From positions 1 to 61,298 of the forward strand of contig SHXV01000001.1 in assembly GCA_009693105.1 (NCBI GenBank): a DNA stretch of 61,298 nucleotides, written 5' to 3'. The notes beneath the pieces were generated by a model. It worked only from the letters and a program-made list of their open reading frames with translations. It made no database searches and was not told where the DNA came from. The translations under genes were made by a program, and so were the position numbers. Shown piece by piece: positions 16,023-55,820 of this stretch (within the stretch, counting starts at the first letter, position 1; every line of letters starts with the position of its first letter). Source of the stretch: Dehalococcoidia bacterium (GTDB lineage: Bacteria > Chloroflexota > Dehalococcoidia > SHXV01).

Positions 16023-17708
16023 ATGGCAAAAGCTGGCACGTCCGCTTCCGCGCGCGGCCGGGTCGATACCGACCTGTGGTGGGACCCGTTTCGGCTGCTC
16101 TGGCAGCTGTTTACCTCCGTTCGGTTCGCCTTCGCCCTGACGGGCGGTCTGGCGCTGGCCGGGTTGTTTGGCACGCTCATTCCTCAGGTGCCCATTCCCA
16201 TGCGCGGCAACGATGTGGCGGTGCAGGCGTGGGTGGAGTTCCAGCAGGGTAAGTTTGGGATGTTCACCGGGGCGATGGACCGGCTGGGCCTGTTCAGTGT
16301 CTTCACCAGTTGGTGGTTCCGCGCCGCCATGGGCGTGCTGGTGGTCTCCGTCACGGTGTGCACAGCCAACCGCCTGCCGCCCACCCTTCGCAACGTGTTT
16401 CGTCCCAGAGAGCGGGTGCCGGAGAACTATTTCGAGCGCGCCCGCTCCCGAACGCACGCTGCTGAGCCTCTGGACGCGGATCGACTCGCCCGCGCCCTGC
16501 GCAGGCGGCGCTACGCCGTCCGCCAGAGCGGGGAGGACGGCGCAACCTACCTCTTCGCCGATCGGTTTCCCTGGGCCGGGCTGGCCACGTTTGTCAGCCA
16601 CCTGGGGCTCATCCTGATCCTGGCGGGGGTCGTCGTGTCCCTCTTGCTGACGAGCGAAGCGCAGCTACTCATCCCGGAGGGGACGGCAAAGGTGTATGGC
16701 AAACTGGATGATCCGAATTTCATGCTGGTGCAGGTGCTGGACACGGTGGAAGGGCGCGACCCGCAGGGAAACATCATCGATTACCACACCGACCTCGCGG
16801 TCTTCCGCAACGGGCAGGAGCTGTGCCGTGGCCGCTCCACTGTGAACACCCCCTTGACCTGCGAAGGCTTTCGCTTCCACCAGAGCATGTTCAGCCCCAA
16901 CGCGGCGCGGCTCCTGGTTAAGGACGCGGCCACCGGCCGGACGCTGTACGATGAGACTCTGGTGCTGGGGGACATGCTGCCGCTGCCGAACGTCCGCGTG
17001 CGCGATGCCGTTACGGGCGAGGTCCTGTACGATGACTTCCTTCCCCTCACGGATACGCTAGAGGGGGGCCAACTGGGCGTGCTGACCCTGCCCCAGCGCG
17101 ACCTGACCCTGCTGGCGGGGGTGAAGCCGGACGACGCCAGCGGCAAGAGCTGGACGCTATTGGTGTTCCAGATCGGAGCCGCGGCTTCGGCGGGCGCCCC
17201 GGTGCAGGCGCGGATCCCGGAGGGGGGCGTCGTAACTGCGGGAGGGCTGGAGTTCGAGTTCGCCGCGCTGGGTGGGGCGCTTGCCACCGTCCTGACTGAT
17301 CTGCCGGGGGCGCGATCCGCCCTGGTCCAGATGCCGCGGGATCGCGCAGGCCGCCCCTACGTTTTGCTCGCGGGCGCCGGCGATGCCCCGGTCCTGCTCA
17401 CGGAGGGACATTCGCAGCTGATTGATGGGCGGCGGTACACGTTCGAGGGACAGCGCGATATCGCCGGGATCACGGTGAAGCGTGACCCCGGCAGTAAGAT
17501 CATCTGGATCGCCGGGGGCTTGATGTTGCTGGGATTGCTCGGTACGTTTTATCTGCCGCGGCGGCGCTTGTGGGTGCGCATTCGCCCCGATGGCACCGCC
17601 TTCGCGGGGATCGCTGAGCCCACGGTGGACTTCCGCCGGGAGATGGCGCGTATTGCCCGGGACACCGGTGGTTCGCTACCGCCCGACGAGGGCGAAGAGG
17701 AGGACTGA
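16023..17708 (+). CDS. resB: cytochrome c biogenesis protein ResB/Ccs1
   Basis: 561 aa. N-terminal 'SVRFAFALTGGLALAGLFGTLIPQ', a large soluble middle domain, and a C-terminal TM 'IIWIAGGLMLLGLLGTFYLPRRR' fit ResB topology. Confidence 0.85.
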   Translation: MAKAGTSASARGRVDTDLWWDPFRLLWQLFTSVRFAFALTGGLALAGLFGTLIPQVPIPMRGNDVAVQAWVEFQQGKFGMFTGAMDRLGLFSVFTSWWFRAAMGVLVVSVTVCTANRLPPTLRNVFRPRERVPENYFERARSRTHAAEPLDADRLARALRRRRYAVRQSGEDGATYLFADRFPWAGLATFVSHLGLILILAGVVVSLLLTSEAQLLIPEGTAKVYGKLDDPNFMLVQVLDTVEGRDPQGNIIDYHTDLAVFRNGQELCRGRSTVNTPLTCEGFRFHQSMFSPNAARLLVKDAATGRTLYDETLVLGDMLPLPNVRVRDAVTGEVLYDDFLPLTDTLEGGQLGVLTLPQRDLTLLAGVKPDDASGKSWTLLVFQIGAAASAGAPVQARIPEGGVVTAGGLEFEFAALGGALATVLTDLPGARSALVQMPRDRAGRPYVLLAGAGDAPVLLTEGHSQLIDGRRYTFEGQRDIAGITVKRDPGSKIIWIAGGLMLLGLLGTFYLPRRRLWVRIRPDGTAFAGIAEPTVDFRREMARIARDTGGSLPPDEGEEED

Positions 17709-41476: not shown

Positions 41477-42736
41477 ATGAGCTATATGACAGCGCTGCAC
41501 TGTCGGGAGTGCGGGCGGGAGTACGAACCCGGCCCCCTCCACGTCTGTGAGTTCTGCTTCGGTCCGCTCGAGGTGACGTACGATTACGATGGTATGCGGG
41601 GCAAGGTGACGCGGAAGCGGATCGAATCCGGCCCACCGACGATGTGGCGCTACATCGACCTGCTGCCCATCGCCGGGGACGACCCGATCGAAATGGGCAC
41701 CGGCTTCACGCCGCTCCTCCGCGCGGAGAACCTGGGGCGGGAGCTCGGCCTGGATGAGCTCTACTTGAAGAACGATTGCGTCAATCCCACCTGGTCCTTC
41801 AAGGATCGCGTCGTCGGAGTCGCCGCCACGCGGGCGCGGGAGCTGGGCTTCACCACGCTGGCCTGCGCCTCCACCGGCAACCTGGCCAACAGCGTCTCCG
41901 CCCATGCCGCCAAGGCCGGTATGGACGCCATCGTCTTCATCCCCTCCGACCTGGAGCAGAGCAAGATCCTGGGCTCCGCCATCTACGCGCCCACGCTGGT
42001 GGCGGTGAACGGCTCCTATGACGATGTGAACCGGCTCTGCAGCGAGCTGGCCGGTCGCTACCCCTGGGCGTTTGTGAACATCAACGTGCGTCCCTACTAT
42101 GCGGAGGGCTCCAAGACGCTGGGCTATGAGGTGGCGGAGCAGCTGGGCTGGCAGGCACCCGACCACTGCGTGGTGCCCATGGCCAGCGGCTCCCTGTACA
42201 CGAAGATATGGAAGGGGCTGACGGAGCTGCACCGGTTAGGCCTCATCGATGAGCCGCACACCCGCATGTCCGGCGCGCAGGCGGAGGGCTGCTCCCCCAT
42301 CGCGACGGCGTGGATGGGCGGCACGATGAACATTCGCCCGCAGCGCCCCAACACCATCGCCAAGTCGCTTGCCATCGGCAACCCGGCGGACGGTTACTAC
42401 GCGCTGAAGACGATGCAGGAGACCAACGGCGCCGCCGCTGCTGTCAGCGATGATGAGGTGGTGGAAGGGATGAAGCTGCTGGCCCGCACCGAGGGCATCT
42501 TCGCGGAGACGGCGGGTGGTGTTACCATTGCCGCACTGAAGCGGCTGGTGCAGTCCGGCGTGATCCGGCGGGGGGAACGCACCGTGGTCTTCATCACCGG
42601 CGCGGGGCTGAAGACGCCGGATGCGGTGATGGGCCGGCTGGCCGCATCGCTGGACATTGAAGCAACGGTCGAGTCGTTCGAGGCGGCGAAGCGGGAGGTT
42701 GATGCCCGCGTGAGCGCGGCCCCGGCGACGGCCTGA
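41477..42736 (+). CDS. threonine-synthase-family PLP enzyme with N-terminal zinc ribbon; candidate homocysteine-forming enzyme
   Basis: 'CRECGREY..CEFCFGPLE' is a ribbon and 'NPTWSFKDRVVG' carries the PLP lysine; the rest has a ThrC-like fold. It is preceded by the SAM-I riboswitch and followed by NIL and MoaD-like genes. Confidence 0.85.
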   Translation: MSYMTALHCRECGREYEPGPLHVCEFCFGPLEVTYDYDGMRGKVTRKRIESGPPTMWRYIDLLPIAGDDPIEMGTGFTPLLRAENLGRELGLDELYLKNDCVNPTWSFKDRVVGVAATRARELGFTTLACASTGNLANSVSAHAAKAGMDAIVFIPSDLEQSKILGSAIYAPTLVAVNGSYDDVNRLCSELAGRYPWAFVNINVRPYYAEGSKTLGYEVAEQLGWQAPDHCVVPMASGSLYTKIWKGLTELHRLGLIDEPHTRMSGAQAEGCSPIATAWMGGTMNIRPQRPNTIAKSLAIGNPADGYYALKTMQETNGAAAAVSDDEVVEGMKLLARTEGIFAETAGGVTIAALKRLVQSGVIRRGERTVVFITGAGLKTPDAVMGRLAASLDIEATVESFEAAKREVDARVSAAPATA

Positions 42737-43014: not shown

Positions 43015-43290
43015 TTGAGCGTCTCCGTGCGTATCCCTACCCCGCTGCGAAAGATGACGAACGAACAGGACGTGGTGAAGTCCACGGGCGATAGCCTGGC
43101 GGCGCTGGTTGAGGCGCTGGAGGGCGAATACCCGGGCTTGAAGGACCGCCTGATGGACGAGAGCGGCGAACTGCGGCGATTCGTCAACGTCTACGTGAAC
43201 GGAGAGGACGTTCGCTTCCTCTCCGGCCTCGCCACCCCCCTCAAGTCCGGCGACGAGGTCAGCATCGTCCCCGCCGTGGCGGGAGGCTGA
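43015..43290 (+). CDS. MoaD/ThiS-family sulfur-carrier protein (C-terminal GG)
   Basis: 91 aa ending '..GDEVSIVPAVAGG'. It is a paralogue of the 51616 ORF and of the N-domain of the 50460 ORF. Confidence 0.88.
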   Translation: MSVSVRIPTPLRKMTNEQDVVKSTGDSLAALVEALEGEYPGLKDRLMDESGELRRFVNVYVNGEDVRFLSGLATPLKSGDEVSIVPAVAGG

Positions 43291-49003: not shown

Positions 49004-49438
49004 ATGAAAGTATCGACCAAGGTGGACTACGGCGTTCGCGCCCTCATCGAGCTGTCCCAACACTACGGCGAAGGGCCGATGCAGAGCAGCGAGATCGCGG
49101 CGCGGCAGCACATTCCGGAGCAGTACCTGGACCAGCTGCTGACCACGCTGCGGCGCGCGGGCTTTATCCGCAGTGTGCGCGGCCCCCAGGGCGGTCACGC
49201 CCTGGTCCGGCCGGCGGAGGAACTGCCGGTGAGCGAGGTAGTCCTGGCGTTGGAAGGGTCGCTCGACCCCATCGCCTGCCTGGAAGAAGGGTCCGCCTGC
49301 ACCAAGGGGGGTGGATGCGCCCAGCGCGGCATGTGGGAAGACGTGCGAACGGCCATCCTGGGGGTGCTGGGAGCCACGACCATCGCGGACTTGCGGGAGC
49401 GCAGCCGAAGCTCACTTGTTGGGCACTACCGGATCTAG
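49004..49438 (+). CDS. Rrf2-family transcriptional regulator (CymR/IscR-like)
   Basis: 'MKVSTKVDYGVRALIEL..IPEQYLDQLLTTLRRAGFIRSVRGPQGG'. Confidence 0.9.
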   Translation: MKVSTKVDYGVRALIELSQHYGEGPMQSSEIAARQHIPEQYLDQLLTTLRRAGFIRSVRGPQGGHALVRPAEELPVSEVVLALEGSLDPIACLEEGSACTKGGGCAQRGMWEDVRTAILGVLGATTIADLRERSRSSLVGHYRI

Positions 49439-49448
49439 GGGGACTCTC

Positions 49449-50390
49449 GTGTCAGACGCCGCTACCCGTTCCCTGAGACCGCTCATCGCCGATAACGCGC
49501 TGGACCTGATCGGCCGCACCCCCATGGTCCGGCTGCGCCGGATCGTGCCCGCCGGCGGCGCGGATCTGCTGGCCAAGATGGAGATGATGAACCCGGCTGG
49601 GTCCGTCAAGGATCGCATCGCCCTGGCGATGATCGAGGAGGCGGAGCGTGCCGGTAAGCTACGGCCCGGCGACACCATCGTGGAGCCGACCAGCGGTAAC
49701 ACCGGCATCGGCCTGGCCATGGTCGCCGCGGTGAAGGGCTACAAGCTCATCCTCACCATGCCGGAAGACATGAGCGTGGAGCGGCGCAAGCTGCTGGCCC
49801 GTTACGGCGTTCAGTTTGTGCTCACGCCCGCCATCGAAGGGATGAGCGGCGCTGTTTACGCCGCGCAGGAAATCCTGGAGAAGACGCCGAACTGCTTCAT
49901 GCCGCAGCAGTTTGAGAATCCCGCCAACCCGCAGGTCCATCGCCTTACCACGGCCGTGGAGATACTGGACGCGACGGAGGGACGGGTTGATGCGTTTGTC
50001 GCCGGGGTCGGCACCGGCGGCACGATCAGCGGCGTCGGGCGCGTCCTGAAGGACCGCATCCCCGATGTTCTCATCGTCGCCGTGGAGCCGACGCGATCGC
50101 CGGTGTTGCAGGGCGGCCGCGCCGGGATGCACGCCATCCAGGGCATCGGCGCCAGCTTCGTCCCCGGCGTGTTCGACCGCGCCGTGGTGGACGAGATCAT
50201 GGGTGTGTCCGATGAAGATTCGATCGAGATGATGCAGCGGCTGGCCCGGGAGGAGGGGCTGCTCGTCGGCGTATCCTCCGGCGCCAACGTCTTCGCCGCC
50301 CTGAAGGTGGCGGCACGGCTTGGCGCCGGGAAGCGCGTGGTGACGATCCTGCCCGATACGGGCGAACGCTATCTGAGTCTGCCGGGCTGA
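49449..50390 (+). CDS. cysK: cysteine synthase A (O-acetylserine sulfhydrylase)
   Basis: 'LIGRTPMVRL', 'EMMNPAGSVKDRIA' and 'EPTSGNTGIGLA..GVGTGGTISG'. GTG start at 49449 after an AGGGGGA RBS. Confidence 0.9.
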   Translation: MSDAATRSLRPLIADNALDLIGRTPMVRLRRIVPAGGADLLAKMEMMNPAGSVKDRIALAMIEEAERAGKLRPGDTIVEPTSGNTGIGLAMVAAVKGYKLILTMPEDMSVERRKLLARYGVQFVLTPAIEGMSGAVYAAQEILEKTPNCFMPQQFENPANPQVHRLTTAVEILDATEGRVDAFVAGVGTGGTISGVGRVLKDRIPDVLIVAVEPTRSPVLQGGRAGMHAIQGIGASFVPGVFDRAVVDEIMGVSDEDSIEMMQRLAREEGLLVGVSSGANVFAALKVAARLGAGKRVVTILPDTGERYLSLPG

Positions 50391-50459: not shown

Positions 50460-51596
50460 ATGACGATCGTCAGGGTGTATGTTCCCGCACCCTTCCGGAC
50501 GCTCACAGGAAACCGCGGTACAGTGGAGGCGCAAGGCGCTGACATCGAGGAGCTGTTGCGCGATCTTGATACGCGCTACCCTGGTTTCCGCGCGCTTGTC
50601 TGTAACGATCGGGATGAGATTCCGGCGCACATCAACATCTATGTGAACAATCGCGAGATTCACTCGCTGGAGGGCACCATGACAAAGCTCAGCGAAGGGG
50701 ACGAAGTGGCCGTCATTCCCGCTATCGCTGGCGGCGCGGACGGAAACGGCTCCGCCGGGCCCCAGGTGTGGACGCCGGACCAGGTGATCCGCTATTCGCG
50801 ACACATCATCATGCCGCAGGTGGGCAGCGCCGGGCAGCGCAAGCTGCTTCACGCAAAGGTGCTGCTCATCGGCGCGGGCGGGCTCGGCTCACCGGCGGCG
50901 CTGTACCTGGCGGCCGCGGGCGTGGGCACGATCGGGCTGGTCGATTTCGATGTTGTCGACCTGAGTAACCTGCAGCGGCAGCTCCTGCACCACACCAGCG
51001 ATGTGGGCCGGCCCAAAGTTGAATCGGCCCGCGACACAATCGCGGCGTACAACCCCGATATCAAGGTGATCCCCCACCAGGAGCCGCTGACGTCTGACAA
51101 CGTATTCGGCCTGTTCAAGCAGTACGACTACATCCTGAACGGGGTGGATAACTTCCCCGCCCGCTACTTGGCGAACGATGCGGCCTACATGCTGGGCAAG
51201 ACTTTGGTGGATGGCAGCATCTTCCTCTTTGAGGGGCAGGCTTCCGTCTACGAGCCGGGCAAGGGCTGCTACCGCTGCCTGTTTCCCGCGCCGCCGCCGC
51301 CGGGCATGGTGCCGTCCTGCGCTGAAGCGGGCGTGCTGGGCGTCCTGCCCGGCATCATCGGCTCCGTCATGGCGATTGAGGTGATCAAACTGATCCTGGG
51401 CGTGGGCGAGCCTCTTATCGGCCGTCTGCTCCTGTTCGATGCGCTTGCGATGGAGTTCCGGCAGGTGAAGACGCGGCGGGATCCGAAGTGCCCACTCTGT
51501 GGCGAGAACCCCACCGTTACGGAACTGATTGACTATGATGAATTCTGCGGATTCCCCTCTGACGCCGTCGCGACCGCGGCGGGGAGGACGGCGTGA
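50460..51596 (+). CDS. fusion protein: N-terminal MoaD/ThiS-like ubiquitin-fold domain (internal ..AIAGG) plus ThiF/MoeB-type E1 adenylyltransferase
   Basis: Residues 1-~92 end in 'GDEVAVIPAIAGG'. A linker is followed by 'YSRHIIMPQVGSAGQRKL..VLLIGAGGLGSPAALYLAAAGVG..DLSNLQRQ', with CxxC pairs 'CYRC' and 'CPLC'. No rhodanese domain is present. Confidence 0.85.
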   Translation: MTIVRVYVPAPFRTLTGNRGTVEAQGADIEELLRDLDTRYPGFRALVCNDRDEIPAHINIYVNNREIHSLEGTMTKLSEGDEVAVIPAIAGGADGNGSAGPQVWTPDQVIRYSRHIIMPQVGSAGQRKLLHAKVLLIGAGGLGSPAALYLAAAGVGTIGLVDFDVVDLSNLQRQLLHHTSDVGRPKVESARDTIAAYNPDIKVIPHQEPLTSDNVFGLFKQYDYILNGVDNFPARYLANDAAYMLGKTLVDGSIFLFEGQASVYEPGKGCYRCLFPAPPPPGMVPSCAEAGVLGVLPGIIGSVMAIEVIKLILGVGEPLIGRLLLFDALAMEFRQVKTRRDPKCPLCGENPTVTELIDYDEFCGFPSDAVATAAGRTA

Positions 51597-51615: not shown

Positions 51616-51888
51616 ATGGCGGTAGAGGTACGGGTCACCTCCGTTCTGCAGCGGATCACGGGCGGCCGGCGCTCCGTGAAGGCGAACGGCGACACCGTGG
51701 GGGAGATGCTCGACGACCTGGAGGGGGCGTACCCCGGCCTGAAGGCGCAGGTAACCGATGACGGCGCTTTGCGGCGGTTCGTCAACATCTACGTGAACGA
51801 CGAGGACATCCGTTACCTGGACGCGCTTGCCACACCGCTGAAGGATGGTGACGTCGTCTCCATCCTTCCGGCGCTGGCTGGCGGCTAG
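51616..51888 (+). CDS. cysO: MoaD/ThiS-family sulfur-carrier protein (CysO-like)
   Basis: 90 aa ending 'GDVVSILPALAGG'. It sits immediately upstream of a CysM-type cysteine synthase. Confidence 0.85.
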   Translation: MAVEVRVTSVLQRITGGRRSVKANGDTVGEMLDDLEGAYPGLKAQVTDDGALRRFVNIYVNDEDIRYLDALATPLKDGDVVSILPALAGG

Positions 51889-51909: not shown

Positions 51910-52854
51910 GTGCGCTACGCCAGCATTCTTGACCTCATCGGCAACACCCCGCTCGTGGAGATCCCGCGGCTCAGCCCCAATCCCAACGTGCACCTCTACG
52001 CCAAGCTAGAGGGGCAGAACCCCACGGGCAGCGTGAAGGATCGCATCGCCCTGCTCATGATCGAGCGGGCGGAGCGGGACGGCTTGCTCGTCCCCGGGTC
52101 CGCGAGGGTGCTGCTGGAGCCGACCAGCGGCAATACCGGCATCGGCCTGGCGATGATCGGGCGGCGCAAGGGCTACCGCGTGCGCGTCGTCATGCCGGAC
52201 TCCGTGAGCGAGGAGCGTACGCAACTGCTGCGGGCATACGGCGCGGAGATCGTGTACTCCGCGGGTTCGCGCGGCACCAACGGTTCCATCGCCCTGGCGC
52301 AGGAGATCGTGGCGGCGGAGCCGGACAAGTACGTCATGCTCTACCAGTACGGCAACCAGGCGAATCCGGACGCGCACTACACCACCACCGGGCCGGAGAT
52401 CCTGCGGGACCTGCCGGAGATCGATGTGTTCGTCGCCGGGCTGGGCACGGGCGGCACGCTCACGGGGGTGGGGCGCTACCTGAAGGAGCACAAGCCGGGG
52501 GTGCGCATCGTCGCGGCGGCGCCGCACCCCGGCGATCTCGTGCAGGGGCTGCGCAGCATGGAGGAGGGGTTCATCCCCCCCGTGTTCGATGAGCGGGTGC
52601 TGGATGGACGGATTGTGGTGGACAGCCGCTCCTCCTTCGCCGCCACCAAGGAGCTGACCCAGAAGGAGGGAATCTTCGCCGGCATCTCCAGCGGGGCGGT
52701 CATCCGAACGGCGCAGAGGGTGGCGGAGCGGATGGAGTCCGGCCACATCGTCTGCCTGCTGGCCGATGGCGGCTGGAAGTACCTCTCCACCGACCTGTGG
52801 ACGAAGGACTACGACGGTCTGGCGGAGGAAGTTGAGACCAAGATCTGGTGGTGA
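51910..52854 (+). CDS. cysM: cysteine synthase B-type (CysM-like; likely uses CysO thiocarboxylate)
   Basis: 'LIGNTPLVEI', 'LEGQNPTGSVKDRIA' and 'EPTSGNTGIGLA..GLGTGGTLTG'. Synteny is with cysO and an E1. Confidence 0.85.
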   Translation: MRYASILDLIGNTPLVEIPRLSPNPNVHLYAKLEGQNPTGSVKDRIALLMIERAERDGLLVPGSARVLLEPTSGNTGIGLAMIGRRKGYRVRVVMPDSVSEERTQLLRAYGAEIVYSAGSRGTNGSIALAQEIVAAEPDKYVMLYQYGNQANPDAHYTTTGPEILRDLPEIDVFVAGLGTGGTLTGVGRYLKEHKPGVRIVAAAPHPGDLVQGLRSMEEGFIPPVFDERVLDGRIVVDSRSSFAATKELTQKEGIFAGISSGAVIRTAQRVAERMESGHIVCLLADGGWKYLSTDLWTKDYDGLAEEVETKIWW

Positions 52855-53196: not shown

Positions 53197-53736
53197 TCAC
53201 TCCCCTGCCCGTTCCTCCGGGCGTAGGCCGGTGTAGCCGCCGCGGTAGAAGATAAGCGGACCCGCGTCCGGGCGCTGAACACCCGCTCTCACCACCTCCC
53301 CCAGGAAGATATCGTGGTCCCCGCCCGGCAGGCGCGCCTGCACCCGGCACTCCAAGAATGACAGCGTGTTGTCCAGGATGGGCGCACCCGTCTCTCCGAT
53401 GCGGTAAGGAAGCCCGAACAGGTCCCGATTCTCGTGCTGCCCCGCGGAAAACTGCCGAGCAATAGCCTCCTTGTCGTCCGCCAGCACGTTCACCGTGAAC
53501 ACGCCGCTCTCCACCATGTAGGGGAGAATGTGGGCGCCGCGGGCGATGCAGACCAGCAGAAGGAGCGGCTCCAGCGAAACGGAGCTTACGGCGTTCACGG
53601 TTATGCCTTTGAGTTCGCCATCGCGTGCCGTCGTGATCACGGCCACCCCCGTGGCGAACGTACCAATAGCTCGGCGGTACTCCTCCCTGGTAACGGTCAC
53701 CGTGCCCTCCTGCGCCCTCCTGCGATGATGCCGCAT
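53197..53736 (-). CDS. flavin reductase family protein (FMN-binding split barrel)
   Basis: 'FRRAIGTFATGVAVITT..ELKGITVNAVSSVSLEPLLLLVCI'. Confidence 0.85.
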   Translation of the reverse strand: MRHHRRRAQEGTVTVTREEYRRAIGTFATGVAVITTARDGELKGITVNAVSSVSLEPLLLLVCIARGAHILPYMVESGVFTVNVLADDKEAIARQFSAGQHENRDLFGLPYRIGETGAPILDNTLSFLECRVQARLPGGDHDIFLGEVVRAGVQRPDAGPLIFYRGGYTGLRPEERAGE

Positions 53737-53763
53737 TGTACTACGCCGGCTCCGGCCCCGCGG

Positions 53764-54568
53764 TCAGGGCTGGCAGTGGCGGCAGAAGCTGGTGACCCGC
53801 TGCCCCGCCGTGATCTCGGAGATGGGGGCGCCGCACCGGGGTGTCCCCCCAGGCGGTGTACCCGCAGGTGCTCCCTGCGCTCCTCGTAGGACAGCTCATC
53901 GCGCATCTTCTCCGCCACGATCGGGATCGACCAGTCCAGCACCCCGTGGATCGCCCGATATAATGCGCCGATCTCGGCATCGGACATCGCTGTTCGTTTG
54001 CGGTAGGGGTGGACGCCGGTCACGAACAGGATCTCGTCCGCGTAAGCGTTGCCGATCCCGGCGATGAATCGGTGGTTGGCCAGGATGCTTTTGATCTGGC
54101 CGCTGTGCTTGCGTATTCGTTCGCGGAACACATCCTCCGTTAGAGCCGGGTCGAGCACGTCCGGCCCCATCTCTGCGAACTGGGCACCGTGTCCAGGTCC
54201 TCGCTCTTTATCAGGTAGAGCTTGCCCATGAGCCGGAAATCGGTATAGCGCAACGCGTGGCCGTCTTCGAACTCGATGACGGCGCAGGAGCGTCAGCCCC
54301 GCTTCTTGTCGCCGCTCGCCAGGTATTGCCAGCGGCCGGTGAGCATGGCGTTGACGGCCATGATGTGGTCGCTGGCCAGGAGGGAGAGGAGAAACTTGCC
54401 ACGACGGTCAACCACGGTGAAACGGTTGCCCTCCAGCGTCTGCGCGAAGTCCTCCTTCGGCATGCGGGAGATGATGGGGATGACGATCTCCGCTCGCGCG
54501 ATCGGCAGGCCGGTGATGCGCGCGTTCACGTAGCCCCGGATCGCTTCCAGGTCCGGCACTTCCGGCAT
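53764..54568 (-). pseudogene. mutM: formamidopyrimidine-DNA glycosylase (Fpg/Nei family), disrupted
   Basis: N-terminal 'MPEVPDLEAIRGY..'. An in-frame TGA follows '..GDKKRG' (stop codon at 54293-54295). The same frame then continues '..VIEFEDGHALRYTDFRLMGKLYL'. One frameshift lies near 54185, before 'FAEMGPDVLDP..IAGIGNAYADEILF' (H2TH). A second lies near 53846, before the zinc finger '..RCGAPISEITAGQRVTSFCRHCQP'. Confidence 0.8.
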
Positions 54569-54569
54569 G

Positions 54570-55820
54570 TCAGGCCCTCCCCCACGCCGCTGGATCGAAC
54601 GTGCGCGCGGACGTGTCCGTGCCGACCTCGGCGTAGCCCGCCGCCGCCACTGCGGCAAGCAGCTCTTCGATGTGGCCGCTGTTCCGTGTCTCCAGCAGCA
54701 GCCGCACTTCCACGCCTCGCACCGGCACGTGGACTCCTACCCGGTGGTGGGCGATGTCCAGCACGTTGGCCTCCATTGCCGCGATGATCTCAAGCAGCCT
54801 CTCCAGCGCTCCCGGCCGGTCTTGCAGCCGCACGGTGAGCGTGAGGTAGCGCCCGGCATGGAGCATCCCGTGCTGGACGGCCGTCGCCAGGAAGTTAATA
54901 TCGATGTTGCCGCCGGACAGCACGATGGTCGTGGACCGCCCCCGCGCTTCCACCGCGCCGGAGAGCAGGGCGGCCACGCCCAGCGCGCCCGCGCCCTCCA
55001 CCACCAGTTTCGTCCGCTCCAGCAGCAGGACGATGGCGTGCACGATCGCCTCTTCCTCCACCGTCACGATGTCGTCAAGGTAGCGGCGCAGCAGCGGCAC
55101 GGTGAGGTCGCCCGGCCGGGGCACGGCGACGCCGTCCGCGACCGTGGGCCCGGCGGCGACTTCCACCGGATGCCCCGCCCTGAACGAACGCTGCGCCCCC
55201 GGCGCCGCCGCTGCCTGCACGCCGATGATGCTGACGTCCGGCCGCAGCGCCTTGAGCGCGATGGCCATGCCGGCGGCAAGCCCGCCCCCACCCACCGGCA
55301 CCAGCACGAGGCGGGCATCCGGGCACTGCTCCGCCAGCTCCAGCCCCACCGTGCCCTGCCCGGCGATGATCGCTTCGTCATCGAAGGCGGGGATGAAGGT
55401 TAGCCCCCGTTTCTTCGCCAGCGCGCGCGCGTATTCCGCGGCCTGGCCGAATCCTGCACCGTGCAGCAGCACCTCCGCCCCGTATCCCCGCGTCGCCTCG
55501 ATCTTGGCCAGGGGCGCGGTTTCCGGCATGACGATGGTGGAGGCGACACCCAGCGCCGCCGCCGCCACGGCCACCCCCTGGGCGTGGTTGCCCGCGCTCG
55601 CGGCGATGACGCCGGCTGCTCGCTCCGATGGGGTAAGCGCGGTCAGCTTCGCGGCAGCGCCACGGGCCTTGAAGGAGCCGGTGCGCTGCAGGCATTCCGC
55701 CTTGAGGGCGATGTCCGCGCCGAAGCGGGCGCTCAGGTTGTGGGAATGCAGGACAGGGGTGATGTGGGCCACCCGGTAGACGGGTCCGGCTGCAGCGCGA
55801 ATGGAGTCCAGCGTGACCAT
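54570..55820 (-). CDS. ilvA: threonine ammonia-lyase (biosynthetic type with C-terminal ACT-like domain)
   Basis: 'LQRTGSFKARGA' (PLP Lys), 'SAGNHAQGVA' and 'VPVGGGGLAAG'. Confidence 0.9.
   Translation of the reverse strand: MVTLDSIRAAAGPVYRVAHITPVLHSHNLSARFGADIALKAECLQRTGSFKARGAAAKLTALTPSERAAGVIAASAGNHAQGVAVAAAALGVASTIVMPETAPLAKIEATRGYGAEVLLHGAGFGQAAEYARALAKKRGLTFIPAFDDEAIIAGQGTVGLELAEQCPDARLVLVPVGGGGLAAGMAIALKALRPDVSIIGVQAAAAPGAQRSFRAGHPVEVAAGPTVADGVAVPRPGDLTVPLLRRYLDDIVTVEEEAIVHAIVLLLERTKLVVEGAGALGVAALLSGAVEARGRSTTIVLSGGNIDINFLATAVQHGMLHAGRYLTLTVRLQDRPGALERLLEIIAAMEANVLDIAHHRVGVHVPVRGVEVRLLLETRNSGHIEELLAAVAAAGYAEVGTDTSARTFDPAAWGRA

Follow-up and report, generated by a model that had tools for sequence, protein, structure and literature searches.

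The window analysed here is a 61,298-nucleotide stretch of the genome of a Dehalococcoidia bacterium (Chloroflexota; contig SHXV01000001.1 of GenBank assembly GCA_009693105.1), and at positions 50460..51596 on the forward strand it carries a gene in which a CysO/MoaD-type ubiquitin-like (Ubl) sulfur carrier is joined through a linker to a MoeB/MoeZ-type activating enzyme (E1). We consider it likely that the product of this gene is a precursor, and that a cut after Gly92 by a JAMM-family metalloprotease frees both a working carrier and the only E1 of the cell. Cleavage by a JAMM is suggested by an invariant Gly-Gly (GG) with a small residue next to it, by a variable and disordered linker, and by a near-constant JAMM gene neighbour. 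It is further suggested by the lack of any other CysO-type carrier in one of the two architectural types of the fusion (type B) and by single chains that contain a JAMM domain themselves. It is the combination of these observations, and no single one, that argues for cleavage. We infer the cleavage itself, the identity of the protease, the sulfur donor and the acceptor of the fused carrier.

The gene is an open frame encoding 378 amino acids (aa) that starts at an ATG at 50460, with a Shine-Dalgarno GGAGG 6 nucleotides (nt) 5' of it, and contains matches to both PF02597 and PF00899, which bears out a preliminary description, made from the sequence alone, of a carrier fused N-terminally to an E1. 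The Ubl (beta-grasp sulfur-carrier) domain covers aa 1–92 (50460..50735, +) and ends in VIPAIAGG. It belongs to the ThiS/MoaD family, matching PF02597 over aa 6–92 (E 2.3e-14; 54.1 bits against a cut-off of 22.5), and its closest relatives in the PDB are the CysO proteins of A. orientalis (4N6E_B, E 3e-13) and M. tuberculosis (3DWG_C, E 6e-10). As the same description had held, these first ~92 residues are paralogous to two free carriers encoded in the window, with 40% identity to the one at 51616-51888 and 35% to the one at 43015-43290, and they keep the diglycine. This Gly-Gly occupies residues 91–92 (codons GGC GGC at 50730-50735), and the frame runs past it without a stop, so that the GG cannot be adenylated as translated, a point that had also been made beforehand.

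The E1 adenylation domain follows at aa 103–378 (50766..51596, +), as delimited by Pfam, alignment and structure comparison, and matches the ThiF model PF00899 over aa 112–345 (E 2.8e-80, 269 bits). Its Rossmann adenylation fold, catalytic residues and zinc site place it in the MoeB/ThiF family: it has the arginine finger R114 (equivalent to MoeB R14), a GxGGxG nucleotide loop at 138–143 (G138/G140/G141/G143), D230 and the crossover-loop C287. The predicted zinc-binding CxxC motif is present as two pairs, C270/C273 and C344/C347. Identity to E. coli MoeB and ThiF is 40–41%, with target-normalised template-modelling (TM) scores of 0.92–0.94. The rhodanese domain noted as missing is indeed absent from the fusion, in which PF00581 finds no match and only ~30 aa remain after the second CxxC. 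The MoeZ equivalog model NF005902 gives 386.6 bits against a cut-off of 647, and the protein is thus outside MoeZ as that model defines it.

Between the two domains lies a linker at about aa 93–102 (50736..50765, +; ADGNGSAGPQ), delimited by an AlphaFold2 (AF2) model and alignment, whose length and sequence vary among homologues. The linker had been put at ~25 aa, which is too long; in the alignment, residue 107 of the fusion corresponds to residue 7 of E. coli MoeB, which leaves ~8–10 aa. The AF2 monomer model, built with an alignment of 64 fused homologues, has a mean pLDDT (predicted local distance difference test) of 84.6 and a predicted TM score of 0.74; the beta-grasp Ubl is confident (block pLDDT 81–96), and values below 50 are confined to the GG tail and linker (residues 89–98) and the C-terminus. 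Cleavage is predicted at the Gly92–Ala93 bond. Foldseek and sequence searches of the PDB returned no solved chain with both a Ubl and an E1 domain, and the fused state therefore has no structural precedent. As another source of free E1, an internal GTG (V100) was considered as a second start and rejected: it would leave the GG of the carrier unfreed, and it has no clear Shine-Dalgarno sequence.

Both domains occur together in all of the best 120 homologues (65–96% identity) in a search of 5.8 billion proteins. Among contigs representing one genome per species, at least 570 stretches encode relatives, and in the best 80 of these, on which the locus counts below rest, 78 encode the full-length fusion. 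The fused loci belong to Chloroflexota, Acidobacteriota, Gemmatimonadota, Armatimonadota, Eisenbacteria and one Thermoplasmata metagenome-assembled genome (MAG). The phyletic survey that the preliminary description had proposed thus places the fusion in at least 78 species genomes of several phyla. In the alignment of 64 fused homologues (50–96% identity), A90, G91 and G92 are unchanged throughout, as are R114, the nucleotide loop, D230, C287 and all four zinc-site cysteines. The stretch between the GG and the RYSRH motif varies from 9 to 45 residues and is of low complexity and predicted disordered. Ala or Ser directly follows the GG in 45 of the 64, which matches the proven Gly82/Ser83 cut of M. 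tuberculosis MoaX.

This recurrence also bears on the possibility that the fusion is a MAG assembly artefact, in which a lost stop or a frameshift joined cysO to moeB. One locus places the split and fused states a single mutation apart: in a Bryobacteraceae MAG (L079:3-1358, +), an in-frame stop follows SIAGG-Y, between the carrier and an E1-rhodanese, with no obvious E1 start codon after it; the locus may be a pseudogene, a MAG error or a naturally split form that a single mutation separates from the fusion. The frame is continuous in the 120 best homologues and the 78 species genomes from several phyla, and it is also found in finished chromosomes and in a relative with 96% identity, whose contig measures 871 kb. 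An artefact is effectively refuted by this recurrence across phyla, and we regard its probability as negligible.

The fused loci fall into two architectural types. In type B, which covers most phyla (including Acidobacteriota, Gemmatimonadota and Armatimonadota), a Ubl-E1-rhodanese of ~480 aa lies in an operon of cysteine synthase, JAMM and fusion, and free carriers are lacking close by. In type A, found in Chloroflexota including the window, the rhodanese is lacking and the order is Rrf2, CysK, Ubl-E1, free CysO, CysM, followed in some relatives by a two-domain rhodanese, a small open reading frame (ORF), JAMM, folP and folK. A cysteine synthase lies within 10 kb in 71 of the 78 fused loci and a JAMM in 68; all 68 JAMMs keep the HxH...SxxD motif, and in 58 loci the JAMM ORF ends no more than 400 nt from the fusion start, on either side. 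A free ThiS/MoaD ORF (hidden Markov model search, E<0.01) is found within 10 kb in only 8 of the 78. Two large type B genomes were surveyed whole. Besides the fused Ubl, a 3.0-Mb Fimbriimonadales genome has ThiS as its sole carrier, and a 3.4-Mb Acidobacteriota chromosome has ThiS, MoaD and a carrier linked to a xanthine dehydrogenase (XDH); neither thus has a CysO-type carrier apart from the fused one.

At the level of 50% clusters, other relatives have the protease as part of the same chain. Teredinibacter waterburyi encodes a 634-aa JAMM-Ubl-rhodanese-E1 (WP_188152452.1) and a Pseudomonas sp. a 619-aa JAMM-Ubl-E1-rhodanese, both annotated as 'MoeB'. At that level the order Ubl-rhodanese-E1 also occurs. 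The GG at the end of the Ubl is retained in all chains of these three kinds.

The genome of the window (G000), which like the rest of the inventory below is taken from a 1.23-Mb assembly that is 83.6% complete, was surveyed for the partners that such a precursor would need. The fusion gene is its only PF00899 E1. As already described, the window encodes no JAMM, and the sole PF14464 match in the genome lies on another contig (C55), outside the cys operon. This JAMM has an intact metal-site motif (E...HSH...SPTD), and its best NCBIfam model is the desampylase HvJAMM1, at 100 bits and so under the 130-bit cut-off. It is followed by folP-folK, as are the cys-linked JAMMs of related Chloroflexota, with which it groups, and the guanine-cytosine content of its contig agrees with the genome. 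Two single-domain, stand-alone rhodaneses with a catalytic Cys are present, as is MoaE. The proposed genome check for partners thus yields one intact JAMM and two rhodaneses. The preliminary description had offered three roles for the fused domain, of which JAMM/Mec-type processing is favoured by the C55 JAMM, by the JAMM neighbours of 58 (within 400 nt) to 68 (within 10 kb) of the 78 loci, by the JAMM-Ubl-E1 chains and by the invariant GG.

We propose the following scheme. The C55 JAMM beside folP/folK, a stand-alone JAMM/MPN+ metalloprotease, would cut after Gly92 and release a 92-residue CysO-type carrier with a free Gly-Gly carboxylate and a 286-residue MoeB/MoeZ-type E1; until then the fused domain would be inert as a carrier, because adenylation needs a free carboxylate. 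The E1, as a homodimer, would adenylate the freed carrier as well as free CysO, the MetO-like carrier, MoaD and a carrier encoded on contig C17, and the resulting acyl-adenylates would be converted to thiocarboxylates. Since the E1 has no rhodanese, either sulfide or one of the two stand-alone rhodaneses would have to provide the sulfur. These thiocarboxylates would then supply the Mycobacterium-type CysM for cysteine, the MetM-like enzyme for homocysteine and MoaE for molybdopterin. Two further tasks probably fall to the C55 JAMM, namely hydrolysis of the CysO-cysteine adduct and trimming of MoaD, whose C-terminus reads GG-AHV.

The operon around the fusion is one for cysteine and sulfate assimilation. 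The cluster is headed by an Rrf2-family regulator (49004..49438, +), whose position is kept in all Chloroflexota-type loci, followed by a canonical CysK of the O-acetylserine sulfhydrylase A type (49449..50390, +), the fusion, a free CysO-type carrier of 90 aa ending in ALAGG-stop (51616..51888, +), and CysM (51910..52854, +). The last is of the M. tuberculosis O-phosphoserine sulfhydrylase type (3DWG/3DKI, 325 bits, with the next class 70 bits lower); the free CysO ends 21 nt 5' of it, so that an O-phosphoserine-type CysM adjoins a CysO here, and by its sequence this CysM is the probable acceptor for the carrier thiocarboxylate. A second free carrier, MetO-like and ending in AVAGG-stop (43015..43290, +), has a ThrC-like (MetM-like) gene 5' of it (~41477-42736). 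In a synthase tree, the CysK of the window and the synthases 5' of JAMM-fusion pairs in other phyla fall into three separate clades, and CysK orthology therefore assigns no partner to the fused carrier. In related Chloroflexota (L006:12464-14121; also L004 and L008), an SseA-like two-domain rhodanese and a conserved 126-aa ORF stand between cysM and JAMM-folP-folK. A tblastn search of the genome of the window with both gave no match, and they are therefore absent or unassembled there.

The genome of the window has five carrier domains in all: the MetO-like carrier, free CysO, the fused Ubl, a MoaD and a carrier beside an XDH-like gene. The MoaD (contig C25, ~16530-16790, −; L088 1489-1743, −) ends in PPVSGG-AHV, its stop overlapping the start of moaE, and because it runs 3 residues past the GG it is a second carrier of this genome that would need trimming before adenylation. 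A MoaD from Acidobacteriota (L096) terminates in GG-SP. The fifth carrier (contig C17; L089 1498-1797, −) is a 99-aa ORF ending in IIPAIAGG, directly 3' of the XDH-like molybdenum subunit, and the same pairing is seen in an Acidobacteriota chromosome (L104). Tails past the GG also occur in free carriers of related loci (L005:3527-3913, L007:10660-11421, L067:1623-1931 and L070:5537-6070), where CysO has GG followed by 14 aa (ADWRPR...) or ends in GG-SL and a MetO-like carrier ends in GG-C. From such tails, JAMM-dependent maturation seems common in this carrier family.

Several points weigh against the precursor reading. First, a JAMM beside cysM is to be expected in any case, since hydrolysis of the CysO-cysteine adduct is the work of Mec+, and adjacency taken alone does not single out precursor processing. 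Second, the JAMM is unlinked in the lineage of the window: in the closest relative (96% identity; the 871-kb contig) the genes stand in the same order, and again no JAMM lies in the 10 kb scanned. Third, free CysO stands beside CysM, so that the fused carrier is left without an acceptor of its own here; no TtuA/NcsA was found in the genome, and no true ThiG, the matches being weak, partial and limited to the TIM-barrel. Fourth, the invariant GG could be kept for binding in the tail channel of the E1. The case for cleavage is, moreover, an indirect one throughout the carrier-E1 family, and the assembly behind the inventory of partners is incomplete.

Some of these points would suit a Ubl that is never removed. 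Acting in cis, or in trans on the other protomer of the E1 dimer, it would instead be a pseudo-substrate, a regulatory lid or a module to which CysM or the free carriers dock, and free CysO, MetO and MoaD would be the only true carriers. A non-carrier role has been suggested for the Campylobacter-type Ubl (Iyer et al., 2006; PMC1779556), and the genome of the window shows no acceptor dedicated to the fused carrier. The arginine finger R114, the counterpart of Uba4 Arg18, is also only 22 residues past G92, and in short-linker homologues the spacing falls to 12. In Uba4, Arg18 is contributed to the ATP pocket by the second subunit (PMC7527816), and because R114 lies so near G92, the tail of a tethered Ubl could sit at the active site of the partner protomer. 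Against a permanently attached Ubl, 70 of the 78 fused loci have no other carrier near the synthase-JAMM-fusion operon, and the fused Ubl is the sole CysO-type carrier in the two large type B genomes. The invariant GG with its small next residue resembles a protease site, JAMM-Ubl-E1 chains occur, and cleavage was needed in every carrier fusion tested so far (PMC4326299, PMC8832034). We therefore hold it unlikely that the Ubl stays in place. Of the other two roles first suggested for the fused domain, that of a dock for the free carriers found no support, and that of a decoy or regulator might apply to the uncleaved state, with processing favoured over it.

Judged from the position of R114, a pseudo-substrate or zymogen role of the uncleaved fusion is conceivable. 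The fusion might then act as a zymogen-like master switch, in which the uncleaved Ubl blocks the ATP site of the partner protomer in trans until a JAMM cut activates the E1 and releases a stoichiometric first carrier, an elaboration that we rate as quite unlikely. If it were true, the cut would activate all thiocarboxylate-dependent sulfur metabolism, because this small genome has no E1 besides the fusion; cysteine (CysM), homocysteine (MetM) and molybdopterin (MoaE) would be switched on together, and the JAMM would be a control point of sulfur assimilation.

A different explanation is specific to Chloroflexota, namely that an ancestral fusion left behind a carrier that is now redundant, cleaved or not, its work having been taken over by a duplicated free CysO. 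With free CysO and a Mycobacterium-type CysM directly downstream, the type A fused carrier does look redundant, and at least one Chloroflexota MAG (L050) encodes the E1 unfused within a matching Rrf2...CysM context. The phylogeny speaks against disuse. A tree of Ubl domains has four solid groups, with support of 81/0 for their branching order (one versus two fusion events). Within it, the type A fused Ubl forms its own clade (100/99) inside a CysO-type group (98/87) that lacks the MetO carriers; its mean identity is 64%, and none of the 33 sampled members has lost the GG. The ratio of Ubl to E1 divergence is 1.50 in type A, not above the 1.78 of type B, in which the Ubl is the sole carrier. 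Both the separate clade and a Ubl-to-E1 divergence that does not exceed that of type B indicate that the type A fused Ubl is under selection, and we think it very unlikely that it is a mere remnant. A processed precursor remains the reading that we prefer.

A further observation in the window lies apart from sulfur metabolism. An Fpg/Nei-type glycosylase is encoded as two ORFs, one with the N-terminal Fapy_DNA_glyco part and one with the H2TH and zinc-finger part (53697-54170, −, and 54293-54658, −). The same two-ORF state is seen in the 96%-identical relative (L109, 13437-14248), as either a conserved split or a shared frameshift.

For the window alone, the fusion is a tidy and explicable feature of its operon and no surprise. 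The wider interest lies in the family. Sulfur-carrier/E1/JAMM systems are prokaryotic forerunners of ubiquitin signalling, and fusions that need a JAMM cut are the nearest bacterial analogue of ubiquitin-precursor processing. Thousands of database entries with the carrier-E1 fusion are labelled 'MoeB' or 'ubiquitin-like small modifier protein 1', and the latter is the NCBI name of two of the best 120 homologues, from Chloroflexota/Dehalococcoidia MAGs. If cleavage is true, the annotation of a large family would be corrected and the carrier for cysteine synthase would be identified in many Acidobacteriota and Gemmatimonadota. Proof of cleavage would also test whether, in small Chloroflexota genomes, the one E1 is kept inactive until it is processed.

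Among known systems, the window most directly recalls the CysO/CysM/Mec+/MoeZ route of M. tuberculosis (PDB 3DWG; PMC3227635), with which it shares a CysO-type carrier, a matching CysM, a MoeB/MoeZ-type E1 with a zinc site, a stand-alone JAMM in the genome and a single E1 for several carriers. The window departs from that route in its E1, which has no C-terminal rhodanese and bears a second CysO-type carrier at its N-terminus, and in a JAMM that lies outside the operon. Fused carriers that are cut at the GG offer a further comparison: M. tuberculosis MoaX is cleaved between Gly82 and Ser83 and is otherwise inactive (PMC4326299), the D. radiodurans MoaD-MoaE fusion (DR2607) is cut by DRJAMM (PMC8832034), and the linear SAMP1-MoaE of H. 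volcanii is cut by HvJAMM1 (PMC4443979). These tested cases agree with the proposed processing, and they share with the fusion described here an internal GG with a small residue after it, a carrier placed N-terminal to its partner enzyme and a JAMM-family protease that is known or likely. The partner in all three is the sulfur acceptor MoaE, whereas here it is the activating E1. Shorter precursors offer another. QbsE/QbsD and HcyS/HcyD are pairs in which a carrier with a short C-terminal extension is trimmed by a JAMM. Mec is reported to mature MetO (bioRxiv 10.1101/2024.10.14.618325, citing Hasebe 2024). In all of these, as for the fusion and for the MoaD with GG-AHV in the same genome, residues past the GG must go before adenylation, but the extensions are 1–3 residues long and the fusion carries a whole enzyme of 286 aa.

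The arrangement itself is already listed in comparative genomics (PMC1779556, PMC2948915), to which the fusion of the window adds a member, and our literature search found no experimental study of a carrier-E1 (Ubl-E1) fusion. Iyer, Burroughs and Aravind (2006) described N-terminal Ubl-ThiF fusions with a solo carrier in the operon, including a Pelobacter case beside a cysteine synthase (PMC1779556), and Makarova and Koonin (2010) listed 'Ubl-E1-TBP' fusions as shared with bacteria (PMC2948915). The order of Ubl then E1 and the solo carrier gene in the operon are the same here. The Campylobacter-type Ubl of that set was described as distinct from ThiS and as found in thiamine operons (PMC1779556), and this published description sets it apart from the Ubl of the window, which is of the CysO/MoaD family (PF02597), has an invariant GG and belongs to a cysteine operon.

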